This document shows positions 5,366 through 48,538 of a DNA stretch of 59,880 nt, piece by piece. The stretch comes from Minisyncoccota bacterium (GTDB lineage Bacteria; Patescibacteriota; Minisyncoccia; Phycocordibacterales; CAIJYI01), in the NCBI GenBank assembly GCA_023229825.1, contig JALNYN010000004.1, forward strand, positions 1 through 59,880, written 5' to 3'. The notes below the pieces were generated by a model. The model saw nothing but the letters and a program-made list of their open reading frames with translations, ran no database searches and was not told where the DNA came from. Position 1 is the stretch's first letter. The number at the start of each line of letters is the position of its first letter. The position numbers and the translations under genes were made by a program.

Positions 5366-5881
5366 TTATTCAATGATCAATCCTTCGAGTTCTTTGTCGA
5401 GCTCCACTTCATTCACGGCTTCTTTCGGAGCTTCTTCCTTCACCGCGCCTGCGGTTTCGGGCTGTTCTTTTTCCTTCATAAGCGGTTTTGCGATCGGCTT
5501 TCCCGCATAAGACGGTTTTCTGATAAGAGTGTTCTCCCGGATGGTTTTGATGATAGTGAAGCGCAGGACGTTTTCAAGAGATTCAATGGATTTCTTGATC
5601 ACCGCCACTGTTTTAGGATCGCCATCAAACTTCACCCATCCGAAATAAGCGTTTTCAAACTTGGTTTTCTTGTTTGAAAATACCTTGAACATCGGATAAG
5701 CCAAAGTGATAAGTCTTGGGTCCTCATCTGAGAACACCGTGCCACCAGCTTTTGCGATTTGTTCCTTAATAAGCGCCGTTTGAGCGGCCAAATCAGCCTC
5801 CTGTATGTAAGGAAGCAGCAAATAACCCACTTCATAGACGCGAAGCTCGGTCTCGAGCTCTATTTTTTCCTCGTTTTCCAT
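5366..5881 (-). CDS. rpsF: 30S ribosomal protein S6 with a charged C-terminal extension
   Basis: ...RVYEVGYLLLP...RLITLAYPM.... Start taken at MENEEK; the ORF-track N-terminal 40 aa look spurious. Confidence 0.85.
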   Translation of the reverse strand: MENEEKIELETELRVYEVGYLLLPYIQEADLAAQTALIKEQIAKAGGTVFSDEDPRLITLAYPMFKVFSNKKTKFENAYFGWVKFDGDPKTVAVIKKSIESLENVLRFTIIKTIRENTLIRKPSYAGKPIAKPLMKEKEQPETAGAVKEEAPKEAVNEVELDKELEGLIIE

Positions 5882-6025
5882 AGGACGAATACTAACAAAG
5901 ATTTGGGAGAAATGCAAATTTTGGGCTATTGCAGAACATACCAATATACGAATGGGTACCAATATACAAATGGATACGAATACGGACGACATCGTTAGCA
6001 TTCGTTAGTCTTTTGTGTGTTGTAT

Positions 6026-6808: not shown

Positions 6809-6825
6809 GCGTTTGAAGAGAATAG

Positions 6826-6906
6826 AAAATAGAGAATTGAGAATAGAACATGAAAAACTATCTTCGTTTATGTTTTTTCTATTCTCTATTTTCTATTCTC
6901 TATTTC
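6826..6906. repeat. Stuttered-arm hairpin, word family AGAATAGAAAATAGAG (copy A1)
   Basis: The left arm gaagagaatagaaaatagagaattgagaatagaa is the inverted complement of the right arm ttctattctctattttctattctctatttc. The same word family occurs at 9061..9125 and 12452..12548. Confidence 0.8.
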
Positions 6907-9060: not shown

Positions 9061-9125
9061 ATTTTTCTTCTTGTTTCTATTTTCTATTATCTATTTTCTA
9101 TTATCTATTTTCTATTTTCTTTTTT
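9061..9125. repeat. Tandem TTCTATTTTCTATTATCTATT word repeat (copy A2)
   Basis: ttctattttctattatctattttctattatctattttctattttc fills the metG/AI-2E gap and encodes the last codons (KKKIENR*) of the upstream gene. Confidence 0.75.
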
Positions 9126-10195: not shown

Positions 10196-10330
10196 CCTCT
10201 CTAACTAACCACTTCCCATCCGTCATCCCGTGCCGCGACACGGGATCCACGGGGAGTAACGATAGACGTGGATTCCGGCTCGCGGGCCGGAATGACGACA
10301 AAAGTGATTGGGTTAATTAGAGATAGTATA
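10196..10330. repeat. Composite GC-rich REP-like element (two 8-bp hairpin modules inside longer inverted arms)
   Basis: CGTCAT-[ATCCCGTG ccgcga CACGGGAT]-CCAC...GTGG-[ATTCCGGC tcgcgg GCCGGAAT]-GACG, flanked by ctctctaactaaccac / gtgattgggttaattagaga. An inverted copy lies at 59710..59880. Confidence 0.8.
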
Positions 10331-12451: not shown

Positions 12452-12548
12452 AGAAGAGAATAGAGAATGGAGAATTGAGAATAGAATAAAAACGACGACA
12501 ATTTTTCATTCGTATTCTATTTTCTATTCTCTATTTTCCATTTTCATC
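12452..12548. repeat. Stuttered-arm hairpin, word family AGAATAGAGAAT (copy A3)
   Basis: gagaagagaatagagaatggagaattgagaatagaa ... centre aaaacgacgacaa ... ttctattttctattctctattttcc. Confidence 0.8.
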
Positions 12549-13137: not shown

Positions 13138-13180
13138 GAAGGGATTTATGATTAACAGATTTAAGGATTTAAGGATTTCT

Positions 13181-13217
13181 CCGCCGGACGCGAGTCTCTG
13201 ACCCCGTCCGGAACGTT
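13181..13217 (+). repeat. GC hairpin repeat family CGCCGG-hairpin-GGAACGTTT (copy 1)
   Basis: ccgccggacgcgagtctctgaccccgtccggaacgttt. Near-identical copies lie at 31785..31822 and 38358..38384, with a stem-variant at 26601..26637. Confidence 0.8.
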
Positions 13218-14316: not shown

Positions 14317-14874
14317 ATGCAATTTAGCAACCCAGATGACAATATTCGTGAGTTTGGCGTAAAACCGGAGCAAAAGATCGCGATTTTTGGATCGGGTTCG
14401 GGCGGACACACCCTGGCGGCGGCGCGTGCTATGAACGGCACGGGTACCATTTACGGCATTGATTCACGAGGTCAAATGGTTGAGAAGCTGAAAAAAGAAG
14501 CATCGGATCGGCACCACATGAACGTGAGGGTGGTTGGGGGCGATGTGGAACGAATGGGCGGCACGGGAATAACTCCTCTTTCGACCGATGCGGTTATCGT
14601 TCCCGACACGCTCTTTTCTGCGAATGATAAAGCCGGAGTTTTTAAAGAGGCCGACCGAATTCTTTCCTACGGAGGACGGCTTTTAGTAATTGATTGGATC
14701 GCTTCATTCGGAGGAACAGGACCGCAGCCGGAACATGTTTTCTCGGAGCAGGAAGCGCTGGAGCTTGGCAAAAAAATCGGTTTCGTCTACGACCGAAGAT
14801 TTCCCGCCGGAAATTATCACTACGCGCTCATTTTTCACAAACCGACGCCGGACGAGAAGAGTATCAGGAATTAG
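14317..14874 (+). CDS. Class I SAM-dependent methyltransferase
   Basis: Motif I IAIFGSGSGGHT, and ...RLLVIDW. Confidence 0.8.
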   Translation: MQFSNPDDNIREFGVKPEQKIAIFGSGSGGHTLAAARAMNGTGTIYGIDSRGQMVEKLKKEASDRHHMNVRVVGGDVERMGGTGITPLSTDAVIVPDTLFSANDKAGVFKEADRILSYGGRLLVIDWIASFGGTGPQPEHVFSEQEALELGKKIGFVYDRRFPAGNYHYALIFHKPTPDEKSIRN

Positions 14875-14972
14875 TATCAGTATCAGGAATAACGAAGTAA
14901 AAAGAAAAACACCGTCGGTGCTTTTCTTTTTTGTTACTTTTCGTCCCTGATACTGATACTAATTCCCGATAC
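14861..14972. terminator. Bidirectional terminator / stuttered-arm hairpin (word GTATCA) between convergent genes
   Basis: The outer arms gtatcaggaattagtatcagtatcagg / cctgatactgatactaattcccgatac enclose the hairpin gaaaaacaccgtcggtgcttttc, which has flanking A- and T-runs. Confidence 0.65.
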
Positions 14973-14988
14973 TCGTCGTCGTATTGTT

Positions 14989-16317: not shown

Positions 16318-16349
16318 ATATTAAATCGACGTAAGTTTGACTATATACC

Positions 16350-16447
16350 GTGGATTCCGGCTCGCGGGCCGGAATGACGTTAGGTGGAAACCGGTTCAAA
16401 ATAATACTACTACATTTCGTCATTCCGGCCCGCGAGCCGGAATCCAC
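16350..16447. repeat. Inverted pair of the GTGGATTCCGGCTCGCGGGCCGGAATGACG REP-like module
   Basis: gtggattccggctcgcgggccggaatgacg ...41 nt... cgtcattccggcccgcgagccggaatccac. Confidence 0.85.
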
Positions 16448-16457
16448 GTTTATCGTA

Positions 16458-20730: not shown

Positions 20731-22404
20731 CTACATTTTTTCCGGCGTTGGTATTCCGAGAAGCGTCAGACCATTTTTGAGAACGATCCCGACGGCTTCG
20801 ACGAGCGCGAGGCGATATTCAGTGTGTTCGTTTCCTAAAATTTGATTTTGTTCGTAGTAGGCGTTGAACTCGCGACAGACTTCGGTGAGGTAGGTGGTGA
20901 TGTAGTTCGGGGAGAGTTCTTTTCTGGCGAGAACGACAGCATTCGGCAATCCTTCAAAAAGAGCTTTTTCCAATGCCGATACCGGTTCCCCTAGGGCGGT
21001 CCTCGGGGATTCCCCGAGGACCGCCCTAGGGGAAATTTCCGCTTTTCGCAGGATCGACTGGGTTCTTACGTAGGCGTATTGAAGATACGCGCCGGAATCG
21101 CCTTCGAACGATAAGGCTTTTTCAAAATCAAAAATAATATCTTTTCCGGGAGATTGTTTCAGGATCGAGTATTTTATTCCCGCGATGGCGATCTCTTCCG
21201 CAACTTTTCCTTTGTGTTCGATCTCTCGATCGGCTATCTTGTTCATCACCATAGCGGAAAGCGCGGAAATGAGGGATTCGGCGGTGATGACATCGCCAGT
21301 CCGTGAAGACATCTTCCCTGTCGGCAGGCGCAACATGCCGTGTGAAATATGCTTGGTCCTTTTTTCAAGATCGGGAAAAACAAGCGACATCGCGCGAAGG
21401 AGGACTTGGAAATAATCATTTACTTCGTTCGCGGTGACGATGATCGATTCGTCGTACTGATACGCCTCATTTTTTATTTTCGCCAGTCCCAGTTCTTTCG
21501 CTTCATACGTCGGCAGACCTTCGGAATTGAGAAATACGCGCGTATGCAAACCGTGTTCTTCTCCGGGAAAAATAACGGCACCGTCGCTTTTTTGAAAAAC
21601 TTTTCCAAGATTTTCCTCAACGATCTGCTTGCCAAGTACCCCTGTTTCGCTCTCGAAGAAATAATAGTCGAAATGCGTTCCAAGTTTTTTGTAAATATGC
21701 TCGAAATATTCCAAACTGATCTTTTTTCCTTCGTCGTAGATCTTATTTATTTCCGGATCGCTCCGGTCATAAATTTTCTTATTGATCTCCTGAATTTCAG
21801 TTTTGTGTTCATCATACGCCTGCGCCCCCACAGAATACGCCTTTCCCAAGTCGGCTGCCGTTATCGTCGTGTTATCGGTCATCGTCATCCGTAATCCGTA
21901 TATTGCCTTCGCCACGTGCATGCCGACATCGCCCTGATAACACGCGCGCTTTACTTCGGCGCCGCTTGCGGAAATAATGCGCGAGATCGCCTCGCCGAGC
22001 GTGTTGGTCATTAAGTGTCCCACATGAAATTCCTTGAACGGATTCGGATCGGTATATTCAATGATCACTTTTTTTTCCGCTTCGCTCGAATTCTTGCCGT
22101 ACTCCGTTCCCTTCTCCAAAATCTCGCCTATGTGTCCGCGCACCGTTTCGTCTTTCAAATAAAAATTAATGAATCCCGGTCCGGCAATTTCCATTTTCTC
22201 CACGGCAAAGTTGATCTCCGATCTTCCCAATTCTGAAACCAAAAATTCCGCCAATTCTTTCGGATTCTGCCCGCGATCTCTTGCGTTCATCATCGCGACA
22301 TTCGTCGCATAATCCCCGAAACCTATTGGTTTTTCCACCACAAAATCTCGCGCGTCAGCGCCCAAAATTTTCATTATTTCCTTTCGTATCGTTTCTTTTA
22401 TCAT
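20731..22404 (-). CDS. argS: Arginyl-tRNA synthetase
   Basis: ...FKEFHVGHLMTN (HIGH-like), an anticodon-binding C-terminus ending ...GIPTPEKM. Confidence 0.95.
   Translation of the reverse strand: MIKETIRKEIMKILGADARDFVVEKPIGFGDYATNVAMMNARDRGQNPKELAEFLVSELGRSEINFAVEKMEIAGPGFINFYLKDETVRGHIGEILEKGTEYGKNSSEAEKKVIIEYTDPNPFKEFHVGHLMTNTLGEAISRIISASGAEVKRACYQGDVGMHVAKAIYGLRMTMTDNTTITAADLGKAYSVGAQAYDEHKTEIQEINKKIYDRSDPEINKIYDEGKKISLEYFEHIYKKLGTHFDYYFFESETGVLGKQIVEENLGKVFQKSDGAVIFPGEEHGLHTRVFLNSEGLPTYEAKELGLAKIKNEAYQYDESIIVTANEVNDYFQVLLRAMSLVFPDLEKRTKHISHGMLRLPTGKMSSRTGDVITAESLISALSAMVMNKIADREIEHKGKVAEEIAIAGIKYSILKQSPGKDIIFDFEKALSFEGDSGAYLQYAYVRTQSILRKAEISPRAVLGESPRTALGEPVSALEKALFEGLPNAVVLARKELSPNYITTYLTEVCREFNAYYEQNQILGNEHTEYRLALVEAVGIVLKNGLTLLGIPTPEKM
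20988..21032. repeat. Perfect 22-bp-arm GC-rich palindrome inserted in frame in argS
   Basis: cccctagggcggtcctcgggga t tccccgaggaccgccctagggg is 45 nt (15 codons) and encodes SPRAVLGESPRTALG. Confidence 0.85.
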
Positions 22405-26593: not shown

Positions 26594-26600
26594 CTGTCGT

Positions 26601-26637
26601 CGCCGGTGCGGGGTTGCACCCCGCACCGAAACGTTTG
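26601..26637 (+). repeat. Stem-variant member of the CGCCGG-hairpin-GAACGTTT family (copy 4)
   Basis: cgccGGTGCGGGGttgcaCCCCGCACCgaaacgttt. It has the same flanks as 13181, 31785 and 38358, but a different, fully complementary 9-bp stem. Confidence 0.65.
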
Positions 26638-26653
26638 TACTTTTCGCCAAACT

Positions 26654-28060: not shown

Positions 28061-28288
28061 AAAATTTTCAATTTACAATTTTTAATTTTCAAGTGAGTGA
28101 GTGAAACAAAAGTCGCAACTTTTGTTTCCGAATGAACGCAGAAAATATAAGAGTGAAACTGCTTTTATTTTCAATCAATTTTCAAATCAAAATTTTCAAA
28201 CCCGTACCGTCCGCTCGCGAACGTCCCGTTTGAAAATTTTCACATTGAAAAATTGGAAATTTATTAAAAATTGTAAATTGAAAATTTT
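28061..28288. mobile_element. AT-rich MITE-like element with 26-bp perfect terminal inverted repeats (TTTTCAA word family, copy F1)
   Basis: Left end aaaattttcaatttacaatttttaat (28061..28086) is the exact reverse complement of 28263..28288. An internal 11-bp hairpin gaaacaaaagt/acttttgtttc is present. A related copy lies at 38776..38920. Confidence 0.6.
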
Positions 28289-28712: not shown

Positions 28713-28720
28713 AAAAGAAG

Positions 28721-28809
28721 AATAAAGCAATAAGCAAAAAGCAACAAGGGGCGACCGTCCGTTTTTCCCTTTTTGCTTATTGCTTTTTGCTTATTGCTTA
28801 TTGCTTATT
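28721..28809. repeat. Stuttered-arm hairpin, word TTGCTTAT
   Basis: aataaagcaataagcaaaaagcaa ... ggggcgaccgtccg ... ttgcttattgctttttgcttattgcttattgcttatt. The right arm encodes the last codons of the dCMP deaminase. Confidence 0.8.
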
Positions 28810-29316
28810 ACTTTTCTGATTCCCTATATACATTTCCACTTCTTTTGTTTTAATGGTCATCCGGATCTTCGCCTCCTTGAAAATTTCTTTTGACCTTTTT
28901 CCTGCGTGATAATCCTTTAATACGACGATATTTTTGATTCCGGCGTTTATGATGGTTTTTGCGCAGGTGTAGCACGGGGTCATGTGACAATAGAGCGTTC
29001 CGCCATCGAGCGATATGCCGAAACGGGCGGCGACGGCGATGGCGTTTTGTTCCGCATGCGTCGTTCTAATGCAGTGTTCCGACTGGGTACCGTCCGCGTG
29101 TATCACCGTGTGCATTTCGTGTCCGGCATCATCGCAATGCGGCAGCCCTTTCGGCGCGCCCGAATATCCCGTCGCCAAGATCCGTTTATCGCGAGTAATG
29201 ACGCACCCCGTCCGTCCGCGATCGCAGGAAGAACGAGAACCCACCGCCTCCGTAAGCGCAAGAAAGTATTCGTCCCATGTGGGTTTTGTCGATTTTAGCG
29301 GAACTTTTTTCTTCAT
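28798..29316 (-). CDS. comEB: dCMP deaminase (ComEB-type)
   Basis: WDEYFL..., HAEQNAI, and the PCYTCAKTII zinc motifs. Confidence 0.9.
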   Translation of the reverse strand: MKKKVPLKSTKPTWDEYFLALTEAVGSRSSCDRGRTGCVITRDKRILATGYSGAPKGLPHCDDAGHEMHTVIHADGTQSEHCIRTTHAEQNAIAVAARFGISLDGGTLYCHMTPCYTCAKTIINAGIKNIVVLKDYHAGKRSKEIFKEAKIRMTIKTKEVEMYIGNQKSNKQ

Positions 29317-29360
29317 GATGCCATTATACACCAAAAATCCGCCGAAGCGGATTTTTTTGT

Positions 29361-29786
29361 TTAATCTTTGATCTCAATTCCCATGCTTCGCGCTGTTCCT
29401 GCGATGATCTTTGATGCAGCCTCGATGTCATTCGCGTTCAGGTCGGGCATCTTTTTCTCTGCGATCTCTTTGACCTGTGCTGTGGTGATCTTTCCAACCT
29501 TGGAAACTGCGTTCTTCTTGGAACCTTTTGCGAGTCCGGCTGCCTTCAAAATGAGACGGGACGCGGGCGGGGTTTTCAGAATGAAATCATAACTTCGATC
29601 TTCGTAGACGCTGATGACTACCGGAACGATATCTCCTCCCATCGCGGCAGTTGCGGCGTTAAATTTCTGTACAAAGTCGCCGATATTGATTCCCGCTTGT
29701 CCGAGAGCCGGACCGACTGGGGGCGAAGGATTCGCTTTTCCGCCCGCGATCTGCAATTTTATTTTTTTGACTACTTTTTTTGCCAT
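29361..29786 (-). CDS. rplK: 50S ribosomal protein L11
   Basis: [35 protein letters not shown]... Confidence 0.97.
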
Positions 29787-29804
29787 TTTATTTTGAGCTT
29801 ATAG

Positions 29805-29885
29805 CTGTTAGCTTATAGCTTATAGACATACGAACGTCGTCGATTCGTCTATAAGCTAAAAGCTATAAGCTATAAGCTAAAGTTA
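29805..29885. repeat. Stuttered-arm hairpin, 7-nt word AGCTTAT
   Basis: gagcttatagctgttagcttatagcttatag - acatacgaacgtcgtcgattcgt - ctataagctaaaagctataagctataagctaaag. Confidence 0.85.
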
Positions 29886-29950
29886 AGCTTACAATTTTTA
29901 CAGTTGCCGGAAAGTAGAAGCCAGACCGACAAGTTACTGTTTCTATTATT

Positions 29951-30070
29951 AGGACTTACGCGCTTGGATGAGAGGCGCCGCCAAAATCGAGAAACGGAGC
30001 GAATGGTATGAATATACAGTGAGCGAGTATCGCAGATTTTGGCAAGCATGTCGCCAAGCCTGTAAGTCCT
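29951..30070 (-). other. Candidate structured RNA / long imperfect hairpin between nusG and rplK
   Basis: Outer pairing aggacttac..cttgg / ccaag..gtaagtcct and a perfect inner 9-bp stem gccaaaatc / gattttggc enclose about 46 nt. It starts at the nusG stop codon. Confidence 0.3.
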
Positions 30071-30614
30071 AAATTCGCCGAACCTGGAGGAAGTCTAATT
30101 CAACCGGGGTTTCGCGTCCGAAGAGCGATACCAATACTTTGACCTTTCCGCGTTCTTCATCAACTTCGCCCACGCGTCCTTCCAGGTCTTTGAACGGTCC
30201 GTCGGTTATGACCACCACTTCGCCATTGAGAAGATCAATATTGTGTTTCGGTGTGTCTGCGCCCATTCGTCCAAAAAGCATGTCAGTCTCTTTCTTATCA
30301 AGAGGTACGGGGGTCACGCCGGCGCCGACAAATCCCGTAACGCGAGGCGTGTTTCGCACCACATACCACGAATCGTCCGTGACGATCATATCCACGAGCA
30401 CATACCCCGGATAGATCTTTTCTTCGATCTCCGCGCGCTTCCCCGCCTTCACCTTGATCTTCTTTTCGATCGGCACGACCACGTTGAAGATCTTGTCTTC
30501 CATGCCAAGTGATTCGATGCGCTGTTTTAAATTTCTCGCGACGGCGTTCTCATATCCCGCATAGGTGTGGATCGCATACCAATTGCGCTCGCCGGCAATT
30601 TCTTGTTTTGCCAT
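30069..30614 (-). CDS. nusG: Transcription termination/antitermination factor NusG
   Basis: NWYAIHTYAGYENAV... (NGN domain) and the C-terminal KOW ...GPFKDLEGRVGEVD. Confidence 0.95.
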   Translation of the reverse strand: MAKQEIAGERNWYAIHTYAGYENAVARNLKQRIESLGMEDKIFNVVVPIEKKIKVKAGKRAEIEEKIYPGYVLVDMIVTDDSWYVVRNTPRVTGFVGAGVTPVPLDKKETDMLFGRMGADTPKHNIDLLNGEVVVITDGPFKDLEGRVGEVDEERGKVKVLVSLFGRETPVELDFLQVRRI

Positions 30615-30619
30615 TTTTT

Positions 30620-30710
30620 TAGGTTTTAGCTTTTAGGTGTTAGGTGTTAGGTGTTAGTTTTTTAACGACGTCGTCGTGAAGCTAAAACCTAAAACCTGAC
30701 AGCTAAAAGC
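30620..30710. repeat. Stuttered-arm hairpin, 7-nt word TAGGTGT
   Basis: taggttttagcttttaggtgttaggtgttaggtgttag - ttttttaacgacgtcgtcgtgaa - gctaaaacctaaaacctgacagctaaaagc. Confidence 0.85.
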
Positions 30711-30719
30711 GTTTAGTTG

Positions 30720-30905
30720 TTATCTTGAAATTAAAAATTCCATGGCTTTGCGGAAGCCGGCATCAAAAACGCCGAGGAGCACCGCAATGAACAAAGACAG
30801 GGCAATAACCAAAAGGGTAAACGCGATGGTCTGATCCTTGGTCGGCCAGCTTACGTGTTTCATTTCGGCTCTCGTATCTTTAAGGTAATTTATGAAATTT
30901 TGCAT
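30720..30905 (-). CDS. secE: Preprotein translocase subunit SecE
   Basis: 61 aa, ...EMKHVSWPTKDQT... followed by a single TM. Conserved secE-nusG-rplK order. Confidence 0.85.
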   Translation of the reverse strand: MQNFINYLKDTRAEMKHVSWPTKDQTIAFTLLVIALSLFIAVLLGVFDAGFRKAMEFLISR

Positions 30906-33488: not shown

Positions 33489-33524
33489 GTCGTTCACATT
33501 TCGCATATGAGAAATATGAACGAC
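33489..33524. promoter_or_regulatory. Imperfect copy of a 36-bp palindrome (downstream flank of the PaaX/Cas2-fold gene)
   Basis: gtcgttcacatttcgcatatgagaaatatgaacgac has 2 mismatches relative to a perfect dyad. Confidence 0.45.
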
Positions 33525-34210: not shown

Positions 34211-34248
34211 AGTCGTTCATATTTCGCATATGCGAAATATGAACGACT
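34211..34248. promoter_or_regulatory. Perfect 38-bp palindrome just upstream of the PaaX-like gene (candidate operator)
   Basis: agtcgttcatatttcgcatatgcgaaatatgaacgact lies 17 nt upstream of the start codon at 34194. Confidence 0.45.
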
Positions 34249-37967: not shown

Positions 37968-38049
37968 AGTTTATCAAGTTCATCAAGTTTATAAAGGACG
38001 AACGATGACGACGGACTTTATAACTTGATGGACTTTCTACTTGATGAAC
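37968..38049. repeat. Stuttered-arm hairpin, word ATCAAGTT
   Basis: agtttatcaagttcatcaagtttataaagg - acgaacgatgacgacgg - actttataacttgatggactttctacttgatgaac. The right arm encodes the C-terminal tail of 38018..38767. A related half-copy lies at about 4511..4545. Confidence 0.8.
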
Positions 38050-38775: not shown

Positions 38776-38920
38776 ACAATTTTCAATTTCCAATTTTTAA
38801 TTTTCAATCAATTTTCAATGTTTCAATTTTTAATTTTCAAACGCGAACGACGCCGTTGAGTTTGAAAATTTTTTATTGAAAATTCATTGAAAATTGGAAA
38901 TTTGTAAATTGAAAATTTTA
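38776..38920. mobile_element. AT-rich MITE-like element (TTTTCAA word family, copy F2)
   Basis: caattttcaatttccaatttttaattttcaa ... centre aacgcgaacgacgccgttgag ... cattgaaaattggaaatttgtaaattgaaaatttt. The ends match copy F1. Confidence 0.55.
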
Positions 38921-40024: not shown

Positions 40025-40075
40025 ACAAAAACTATACACAAAAATAACATAAAAATCTAATTAAACGGTGCATGC

Positions 40076-40103
40076 GTGGATTCCAGCCTCCGAGGGAATG
40101 ACG
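40076..40103. repeat. Variant REP-like module GTGGATTCC-N-GGAATGACG
   Basis: gtggattccagcctccgagggaatgacg. Confidence 0.6.
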
Positions 40104-40114
40104 GGAATAATCAC

Positions 40115-48397: not shown

Positions 48398-48467
48398 AAA
48401 CTAATTTGACAAAATGTTAAATGATTAAATGGCTAAATTGTTATGCAACACACCAACAAACCTTAAT

Positions 48468-48538
48468 AACAATTTAACAATTTAACAATTTAACAATTTA
48501 ACAATTTAACAATTTAACAATTTAACAATTTAACAATT
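48468..48538. repeat. (AACAATTT)9 tandem repeat
   Basis: About nine direct 8-nt units with a partial inverted partner (gttaaatgattaaatggctaaattgtt) at about 48416..48445. The stop codon of 48537..49574 lies in the last unit. Confidence 0.9.

Follow-up and report, generated by a model that had tools for sequence, protein, structure and literature searches.

Intervening sequences (IVSs) in rRNA genes and their S23p open reading frames (ORFs) have been known since the 1990s, and we know of no explanation for their function or for the way in which they spread. They occur sporadically (in Coxiella burnetii, Leptospira, Brucella and Xanthomonas, and in the 16S and 23S rRNA genes of candidate phyla radiation (CPR) bacteria), and the complete form has a long terminal inverted-repeat stem with a PF05635 (S23p) gene in its loop. 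In the S23p IVS of Coxiella, the stem contains two to three copies of the heptamer GACAGAT, variable in number, and the IVS is excised by RNase III (PMC4990558). The S23p protein of Xanthomonas (2GSC) is a homopentameric toroid of four-helix bundles (PMC4990558). ORFs named 23S_rRNA_IVP have been described in insertions of CPR 16S and 23S rRNA genes, with hairpins and inverted repeats unmentioned (PMC11270868). We analyzed a 59,880-nt stretch of DNA from a Minisyncoccota bacterium (GCA_023229825.1, contig JALNYN010000004.1; C15:1-59880 in our numbering, hereafter the window) and found long hairpins with stuttered arms in the spacers between its genes. These hairpins share with the rRNA IVSs the long terminal stem and the tandem, variable-number heptamers in it. 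They differ from the IVSs in standing between protein genes, in having no ORF, in numbering about 140 per genome in 12 word families, and in that excision by RNase III is here only inferred. On the whole, we lean towards the view that they are gene-less, proliferating palindromic elements of the IVS type, which would be cut by RNase III when transcribed.

The source genome (G000) is a 1.43-Mb assembly of 49 contigs with 45% GC and 92% completeness; the comparison genomes (G001-G030) are those of relatives, 0.5-1.4 Mb in size. Tandem Repeats Finder (TRF), run on the whole genome, called 1380 tandem arrays, 410 with period 7 and 116 with period 14. An inverted-repeat scan returned 256 hairpins with a stem of at least 22 nt genome-wide, of which 177 are mostly intergenic. 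A tandem array overlaps 163 hairpins with a stem of at least 18 nt, and simple word sets assigned 140 hairpins to families. These ~140 hairpins occupy 15.5 kb, or 1.1% of the genome. Their arms are tandem words of 7-9 nt, and their ungapped stems have a median length of 31 nt (interquartile range 26-36), so that they possess the terminal inverted repeat of an IVS (stem of at least 20 bp). The loops of the window hairpins (12-60 nt) hold no ORF, PF05635 or other, and all window elements lie between protein-coding genes, not in an rRNA helix. The original prediction, made from the window sequence, had described long inverted repeats with arms of a tandem word that differs at each locus. TRF and the inverted-repeat scan bore out a tandem array at every locus named there, and a long inverted repeat at all of them (predicted folds of -20 to -77 kcal/mol) except 13155-13180, which is a lone array of 2.6 copies without an inverted partner. 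The words, however, are not specific to a locus. The 140 hairpins fall into about 12 recurring families, dispersed across the genome with 1-34 copies each, and the words AGCTTAT (29805) and TAGGTGT (30620) are both variants of AGSTKWT. The families are as follows.

Family B, AAAAANN, 34 copies
Family A, AGSTKWT, 29 copies
Family D, WGADAAT, 18 copies
Family G, AATTTCC/TAATTCC, 13 copies
Family E, ATACCAATATACGAATG, period 18, 12 copies
Family C, CAATTTT, 9 copies
Family F, ATCAAGTTY, 8 copies
Family I, AGTATCAG, 6 copies
Family H, AAAGTCR, 4 copies
Family J, GATTTAAG, 3 copies
Family K, a period-8 word, 3 copies
Family L, AAGCAAT, 1 copy

Between contigs, copies of one family reach 85-92% identity along the whole element including the loop, and no identical pairs were found. 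Half-sites of family E number 91 in this genome and 58 in the closest relative (G005), with 0-3 in the other congeners and none in a reversed-pattern control; the expansion of this family is thus specific to the lineage of these two genomes.

We found the same words around PF05635 genes. The genome has four such genes, all bracketed by inverted arrays, and the arrays belong to four different families (A, D, I and K'), which are those of the window hairpins at 29793 and 30629, at 6817 and 12453, at 14856 and at 48402, respectively. The family A cassette lies at C45:39689-40209. Family D words, as in the hairpin at 6817..6901, flank the gene at C45:92472, arms near-identical to those of the family I hairpin at 14856..14977 flank the gene at C11:38731, and the words of the K' hairpin at 48402..48538 flank a divergent PF05635 gene at C11:41790. 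The putative words of the four resident paralogues are AGGTGTT, AGAGAAT, AGTATCAG and TTAAATGG. The family A cassette reads AGCTT-GACGACGAC...gene...GCGTTAAA-CTAACACC, and the hairpin at 30629-30710 reads AGCTT-CACGACGAC-GTCGTTAAA-AAACTAAC on the mRNA strand. The inner junctions of the cassette are matched by AGCTT-CACGACGAC and CGTTAAA of the hairpin, and the gene-less family A hairpin is effectively the cassette minus its interior. The protein of this cassette matches PDB 2GSC (XCC0516), the closest solved structure, deposited with five chains, with E = 4e-28. We consider the hairpins very likely to be gene-less relatives of S23p cassettes; those in the window would have kept the arms and inner junctions of the cassette, and the gene would have been lost or never present. 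The arrays and hairpins of the window are listed below.

6817..6901, family D hairpin (AGAGAAT/AGAAAAT) in the spacer that separates the TatD gene from the gene that follows; arms of 27 nt, 93% complementary, -42 kcal/mol
9074..9125, lone family D array, TTTCTAT x7.4 (TRF), just upstream of the start of metG (methionyl-tRNA synthetase by Pfam); no inverted partner and no fold
12453..12548, family D hairpin with AAAAACGACGACAA apex, in a divergent spacer
13158..13178, lone family J array, GATTTAAG x2.6 (TRF); no hairpin and no inverted partner
14856..14977, family I hairpin with AGTATCAG words; 32-nt arms, 94% complementary, and a nested inner hairpin
28061..28288, composite family C hairpin, AATTTTC/CAATTTT; outer 26-nt arms 100% complementary; its interior holds another small element and a second C hairpin with CGCGAACGTCCCG apex
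28715..28813, family L hairpin separating the dUTPase gene from the dCMP deaminase gene; words AAGCAAT/AAGCAAA
29793..29881, family A hairpin, AGCTTAT/AGCTGTT; 35-nt arms, apex ATACGAACGTCGTCGATTC; its end lies 10 nt before the start codon of rplK
30629..30710, family A hairpin in the secE-nusG spacer; words AGGTGTT/AGCTTTT, apex TTTAACGACGTCGTCGTG
37968..38049, family F hairpin, ATCAAGTTY/ATAAAGT, period 9; apex GACGAACGATGACGACGG
38780..38917, family C hairpin; inner stem TTTTCAAACGCGAACGACGCCGTTGAGTTTGAAAA
42646..42672, lone family H array, ACTTTTG x3.9 (coding strand AAAGTCA), just upstream of the start of a P-type ATPase gene
48402..48538, family K' hairpin, TTAAATGN / AACAATTT, period 8; right arm grown to 9 perfect units

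The association of words and PF05635 genes extends to other genomes. In a first set of relatives, 11-12 of 13 PF05635 genes are bracketed likewise, each by its own word, and gene-bearing copies of families B, C, F, G, H, J, K and L are present in relatives of the same taxonomic family (among them C arms at G007:C88, J arms at G004:C7, H arms at G001:C3, L arms in G004 and G002, and F arms in G005 and G006). In a relative of the same order (G025; locus L028 on G025:C1, 1431-1870), a PF05635 cassette with CTGGAMA arms interrupts helix 6 of the 16S rRNA between GCAAGTCGAACG and GGCAAACGAGGTAGTAACACG, inside the Rfam SSU match. By its sequence and position, this cassette is evidently a true rRNA IVS of the same design. 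The Rfam SSU match of that 16S gene reaches only 549 bits over 1488 nt, and the gene may carry further oddities. No rRNA motifs were found in our own assembly, so that an IVS in the organism's own rRNA has no locus here.

Arrays and PF05635 genes also go together across genomes, as seen in 30-100 kb sampled from each of 15 genomes. The five genomes without PF05635 have 0-6 period-7 arrays and 0 periodic hairpins per 100 kb, and the ten genomes with PF05635, four of which belong to other families of the order, have 14-35 and 0-7, respectively. A cross-phylum scan with one genome per species yielded 80 close PF05635 relatives from many phyla, 76 of them at analysable loci. A bracketing inverted repeat was found at 49 of the 76 loci and at 0 of 76 in a mismatched-flank control (flanks paired across loci), a fraction that is valid only for close PF05635 relatives of this lineage. 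The period of the bracketed cassettes is 7 in 41, 8 in 6 and 9 in 1. The cassettes of three genera (L017, L019 and L020 in G017, G011 and G023) lie directly upstream of a PrgI-like gene starting MRFQTPQFI.., and those of two genera (L027 and L029 in G030 and G028) directly upstream of fusA. The recurrence of the same host genes downstream in different genera suggests preferred landing sites of PF05635 cassettes.

We then investigated the arm words. On the gene sense strand, the upstream arms of 62 gene-bearing cassettes contain 251 AG and 56 CT dinucleotides in 1755 nt; AG is spaced at one per 7.0 nt, and 44 arms have at least three AG in the same phase. Among the gene-less hairpins of the genome, 99 are AG-first and 16 CT-first (p ~1e-15, with copies within a family not independent), compared with 102 and 107 among non-periodic hairpins. 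Of the families, eight put AG first, only G puts CT first and three show no preference. Gene-bearing and gene-less forms thus obey the same polarity rule, under which the 5' arm has roughly one AG in each heptamer. Words with AG accompany the canonical PF05635 proteins (108 bits and above), and the non-AG families (G, C, B, K and K') accompany divergent ones (46-97 bits). This split fits a word-reading protein and, equally well, two old cassette clades that have co-diverged. The PF05635 tree tracks the word family across species (support I+I 95/95, L+L 100/99, F+F2 100/99 and A+A 91/82); the sister lineages of the A+A clade have the related words AGTGRGT and AGTTTWT.

These results bear on an alternative that overlaps with, and does not exclude, the descent of the hairpins from cassettes: the arms could be working binding sites, on RNA or on single- or double-stranded DNA, for ring-shaped S23p proteins, with one heptamer word per paralogue. 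The hairpins would then be trans targets of a protein-array system in translation, mRNA control or nucleoid organisation, and not merely selfish relics. The agreement of protein tree and word family, the pairing of canonical proteins with AG-phased words and of divergent proteins with the non-AG families G, C, B and K, the fixed polarity of AG across phyla and the co-occurrence of arrays and PF05635 genes would all be expected of such sites. So would the ring shape, since 2GSC, with five chains, is a homopentameric toroid (PMC4990558), and the lone direct arrays just upstream of start codons at 9074 and 42646, which resemble the TAACTGA arrays of Beggiatoaceae (PMC4679880). However, most families here have no resident cognate gene, co-descent of gene and arms explains the congruence of tree and words equally well, hairpin positions are not conserved between species, and the lone direct arrays show no orientation bias genome-wide (64 sense and 55 antisense). 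We therefore regard this alternative as rather unlikely.

The lone arrays invite comparison with two kinds of described heptamer repeats. Direct arrays of TAACTGA are known from Beggiatoaceae, Cyanobacteria and Bacteroidetes, and no link to PF05635 was made (PMC4679880). Like these arrays and the cyanobacterial short tandemly repeated repetitive (STRR) sequences, the elements studied here are intergenic tandem 7-mers of 2-6 or more copies that often end a few nucleotides before a start codon. As here, variant words occur within a TAACTGA array, and the reverse complement, TCAGTTA, fits NAGNNNN. The TAACTGA arrays are direct and have a single orientation to the downstream gene, whereas the arrays here are mostly inverted hairpin pairs without orientation bias; roughly half of the oriented arrays form inverted pairs.

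The apices of the hairpins differ from their arms in composition. In the central 40 nt of 115 hairpins, the observed/expected ratio of CpG is 2.13, compared with 0.92 in the arms and 1.43 in other intergenic DNA, which upholds the CpG-rich apices of the original prediction. That prediction had also proposed a shared AACG(A/T)CG/CGTCG core as the common unit, with arms free to vary. In the apical 40 nt, AACGWCG is present in 17% of apices and 1.4% of background windows, ACGAC in 39% and 7.5%, and CGTCG/CGACG in 37% and 8%; such motifs are enriched 5-12 fold and are nevertheless found in fewer than half of the hairpins. The loops vary between copies and yet are rich in ACG/CGA/GTC strings, which are also found at the inner junction of gene-bearing cassettes in at least seven word lineages of the genus. 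In 49 cassettes from other phyla, however, CpG and CGAC are no more frequent in the 25 nt on the inner side of the arms than in the 25 nt on the outer side (CGAC 8% each). We rejected the CG-rich core as a universal or defining part for this reason. It is a genus-level feature laid over unrelated lineages and is variable in sequence. The arms, far from being free, define the families, are tied to the PF05635 cassettes and carry a conserved rule of their own. The apex may be a genus-specific addition that serves as a site for a host factor, as a unique clamp fixing the register of arm pairing, or as a target for REP1.

REP1 is a GC-rich palindrome resembling repetitive extragenic palindromic (REP) sequences, GTCATYCCGG(N7-9)CCGGRATCCACG, with 141 copies in the genome, and is distinct from the hairpins. 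It often forms inverted pairs and is often nested in the loops of heptamer hairpins; window copies are at 16349-16448, 10221-10297 and ~40075-40105. A second GC-rich palindromic repeat, GCCGGACGGGGTTTGTAACCCCGTCCGAAACGTTTG, has ~28 hits (in the window, 13185-13215 and 26600-26650). Like REP1 it forms inverted pairs, here spaced by 45-90 nt, and it is also present in the G002 spacer orthologous to that at 6809.

We also investigated the placement of the hairpins. They are less general than the original prediction held in assigning them to most gaps between co-directional genes: in the window they occupy 8 of 25 co-directional gaps of at least 50 nt and 8 of all 48 co-directional gaps. Co-directional hairpins begin a median of 7.5 nt past a stop codon and end 22.5 nt ahead of the next start. 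Single housekeeping genes (nusG, rplW, groES, atpE and ruvC) are often flanked on both sides by hairpins of the same family. An integron attC-like reading was rejected, as the flanked genes are core housekeeping genes. The T-run of a classical terminator is indeed missing from most hairpins, as predicted: a T-rich tail follows only 16 of 94 co-directional ones. Their arms have 23.5% GC, at odds with the GC-rich stem and U-tract of an intrinsic terminator. A terminator scan flagged no hairpin, and it did flag a canonical terminator with GC-rich stem and T-run at 29333-29356. The low GC content of the arms, the scarcity of T-rich tails and the presence of separate canonical terminators indicate that the hairpins are not the ordinary terminators of this organism.

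They could still be regulators evolved by the host (U-tract-independent terminators, attenuators or REP-like 3' stabilisers), born locally by slippage and inverted duplication and unrelated to the cassettes. Their tight fit between co-directional genes, their very stable stems and the occupancy of some spacers in several species agree with such an origin. We consider it highly improbable, because one and the same word set can be found at as many as ~30 loci in a family as well as around PF05635 genes, the hairpins are absent from related genomes without PF05635, and 13 of them lie in divergent spacers and 12 inside ORFs. Besides the rarity of T-rich tails and the existence of separate terminators, the mismatches of the stems show no sense-strand G:U bias, and occupancy is not significantly conserved, as follows.

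We compared 44 conserved adjacent gene pairs between the window genome and five congeners. Of their spacers, 8 have arrays in both species, 11 in our genome alone, 5 in the relative alone and 20 in neither. Shared occupancy of these orthologous spacers is not significant (odds ratio 2.9, p = 0.18), and this lends no support to a site-specific host function. Where both species have an array, the words differ in 8 of 8 spacers. The hairpins turn over between species, and the nusG-rplK spacer illustrates this turnover. It holds a family A hairpin in G000, a family L hairpin in G004, a family F hairpin in G006, an H-like hairpin in G001 and a gene-bearing PF05635 cassette with AGTTTWT arms in G007, and it is empty in G002 and G003. 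An F hairpin is found in G006 also in the spacer orthologous to 37968..38049.

Several side observations concern the spacers just described. The nusG-rplK spacer also contains a second, unrelated palindromic insert of ~120 nt (29949-30072; GGACTTACGCGCTTGG...CCAAGCCTGTAAGTCC, fold -55 kcal/mol). G002 and G004 lack this insert, its GGACTTACG end occurs 11 times in the genome, and the G003 spacer orthologous to that at 6809 is filled by a similar element. The block TTACAATTTTTACAGTTGCCG at 29886-29906, upstream of rplK, is conserved in the window, G002 and G004. It may be a candidate rplK promoter (minus strand TTGGCT..N18..TAAAAT in G002), which would place the family A hairpin within the rplK 5' untranslated region; a scan for consensus promoters gave no hit to the block. 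On the minus strand, the order of features in this region is as follows.

30720-30905, minus strand, secE, followed by a hairpin
30069-30614, minus strand, nusG
29949-30072, palindromic element of ~120 nt, followed by the short conserved block and a hairpin
29361-29786, minus strand, rplK
29333-29356, canonical terminator, followed by the dCMP deaminase gene, a hairpin, the dUTPase gene, the composite hairpin and thyA

The arms behave as slippage-prone arrays. At 48467-48538, the right arm of the K' hairpin has 9 perfect units, as opposed to ~4 degenerate units on the left. The earlier suggestion that the hairpins are one related class of common origin with slippage-type stems is supported. 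Between the orthologous cassettes of G001 and G003, all units of both arms show one and the same two-base difference (GTATATG and GTATCAG), a pattern that requires homogenisation within and between arms. Replication slippage combined with quasipalindrome template switching is an established mechanism able to homogenise arms. We infer that it acted on the arms of these two cassettes; more generally, slippage in the arrays together with arm-to-arm correction of this kind would produce the arm stutter. The elements themselves would proliferate by a copying mechanism that probably depends on S23p.

The hairpins resemble miniature inverted-repeat transposable elements (MITEs), REP sequences and bacterial interspersed mosaic elements (BIMEs), which are likewise short, multi-copy, intergenic palindromes with a gene-bearing master and many gene-less copies, lineage-specific expansions (as in family E) and nested insertions. 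Many dispersed, similar copies exist here as for a MITE, but an autonomous element encoding a transposase does not. No transposase lies within the arms, and the sole gene inside full-length forms encodes the PF05635 four-helix bundle, which, unlike a transposase or a REP-associated tyrosine transposase (RAYT), has no known catalytic activity. The hairpins are not associated with a RAYT-type HUH nuclease, a RAYT gene not having been searched for. The arms are AT-rich tandem heptamers, as opposed to the unique terminal inverted repeats of MITEs and the GC-rich stems of REP sequences, and so the hairpins are not REP or BIME palindromes.

Co-transcribed stems of 25-40 bp would be cut by RNase III, as rRNA IVSs are; the Coxiella IVS stem, also made of variable-number tandem heptamers, is an RNase III substrate, and the genome has, on C40, an rnc gene with a NERLEFLGDA signature. 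Such cutting would split or insulate cistrons and would not terminate transcription. We hold RNase III processing of the hairpins to be quite possible, though short of probable. Fold energy gives no signal as to the transcribed strand, favouring the sense strand in 52 hairpins and the antisense strand in 42. The orientation of the loop to transcription is 13 versus 6 in family A and 6 versus 0 in family E, without a convincing bias overall.

A number of results weigh against the reading of the hairpins as IVS-type elements. Mismatches of the G:U type number 46 on the sense and 47 on the antisense strand, with no bias to the transcript strand, and loop orientation is random in family B (10 versus 12), so that the transcript bears no signature of selection. 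For eight of the 12 families, among them the largest (B, 34 copies), the 92%-complete assembly has no cognate gene. Family E, with its period of 18 and not 7, has no gene-bearing copy in any genome examined. No clear target-site duplication was seen between filled and empty sites (nusG-rplK and the spacer at 29335-29360), where the spacers are too diverged for base-level boundaries, and no movement or mobility enzyme was seen. The restricted validity of the cross-phylum bracketing fraction belongs here as well.

The likeness of the two strands in mismatches and the random loop orientation would also suit a role at the DNA level without any RNA role, such as cruciform or slipped-strand recombination, replication-pause sites or insertion targets, for instance landing pads for REP1, whose 141 copies often sit in hairpin loops. 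We give this very little credence. There is no positive sign of any DNA transaction, and a GC-rich centre disfavours cruciform extrusion from duplex DNA. Moreover, an RNA stage is indicated by the cassette in the 16S rRNA gene of G025 and by the IVSs already characterised (PMC4990558).

Some other features were found in the window. It contains no tRNAs, and an Rfam search of the whole window at gathering thresholds gave no match. The ORF at 5366-6001 shares its annotated 5' end with a family E array (ATACCAATATACAAATGG x2.5, period 18; 5938-5982) that overlaps it, and the true start codon of this ORF is probably further downstream than annotated. A perfect 24+24-nt palindrome, TTCCCCTAGGGCGGTCCTCGGGGA, lies in a coding region at 20986-21034, with related copies inside ORFs on five contigs. 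Near-perfect palindromes, AGTCGTTCATATTTCGCAT|ATGCGAAATATGAACGACT, at 33489-33524 and 34211-34248 are located upstream of genes, with 5 sites genome-wide, and look like an operator for a dimeric regulator.

PF05635 resembles Avd, the accessory protein of diversity-generating retroelements (PMC10053308). A link of the hairpins to such retroelements was rejected: none of the four PF05635 genes here adjoins a reverse transcriptase, the sole reverse-transcriptase gene being unlinked to any of them, and template and variable repeats were not found. That gene (C17:33664-35208, minus strand) is a 515-aa, AT-rich frame of Abi/DRT-like appearance.

The original prediction did not recognise the hairpins as a described repeat class, and we too found no paper describing them. 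In our literature search, neither gene-less heptamer hairpins of CPR genomes nor the word families nor the AG rule were found to be described. New here are the gene-less side of the IVS design, its association with PF05635 at the genome level, and the rules for arms and apex. With and without its gene, the IVS design makes up ~1% of a reduced genome and stands at cistron boundaries of core operons (secE-nusG-rplK; rplW, groES and atpE), and this has a bearing on the processing of polycistronic mRNA in CPR bacteria. In annotation, the hairpins should not be labelled terminators; they are a source of spurious ORF calls and probably of contig breaks. The pairs of protein and word, the conserved AG of fixed polarity and the co-occurrence of genes and arrays make the function of PF05635 testable. 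Tentatively, and with more doubt than confidence, we propose that PF05635 ring proteins may be sequence-specific readers of phased NAG heptamers, each paralogue with its own word, and may form with the arrays a two-part, transposase-free hairpin-seeding system. TRAP, which reads spaced (G/U)AG triplets, is an analogue. If this model is true, hairpins would be seeded at cistron boundaries and in rRNA in a manner analogous to RAYT and REP, and this would be the first function of PF05635 outside diversity-generating retroelements. A common origin is suggested for several unexplained classes of heptamer repeats, and the reader model could explain the long-noticed excess of heptamers in bacteria, from the STRR sequences and TAACTGA arrays to the CPR hairpins.

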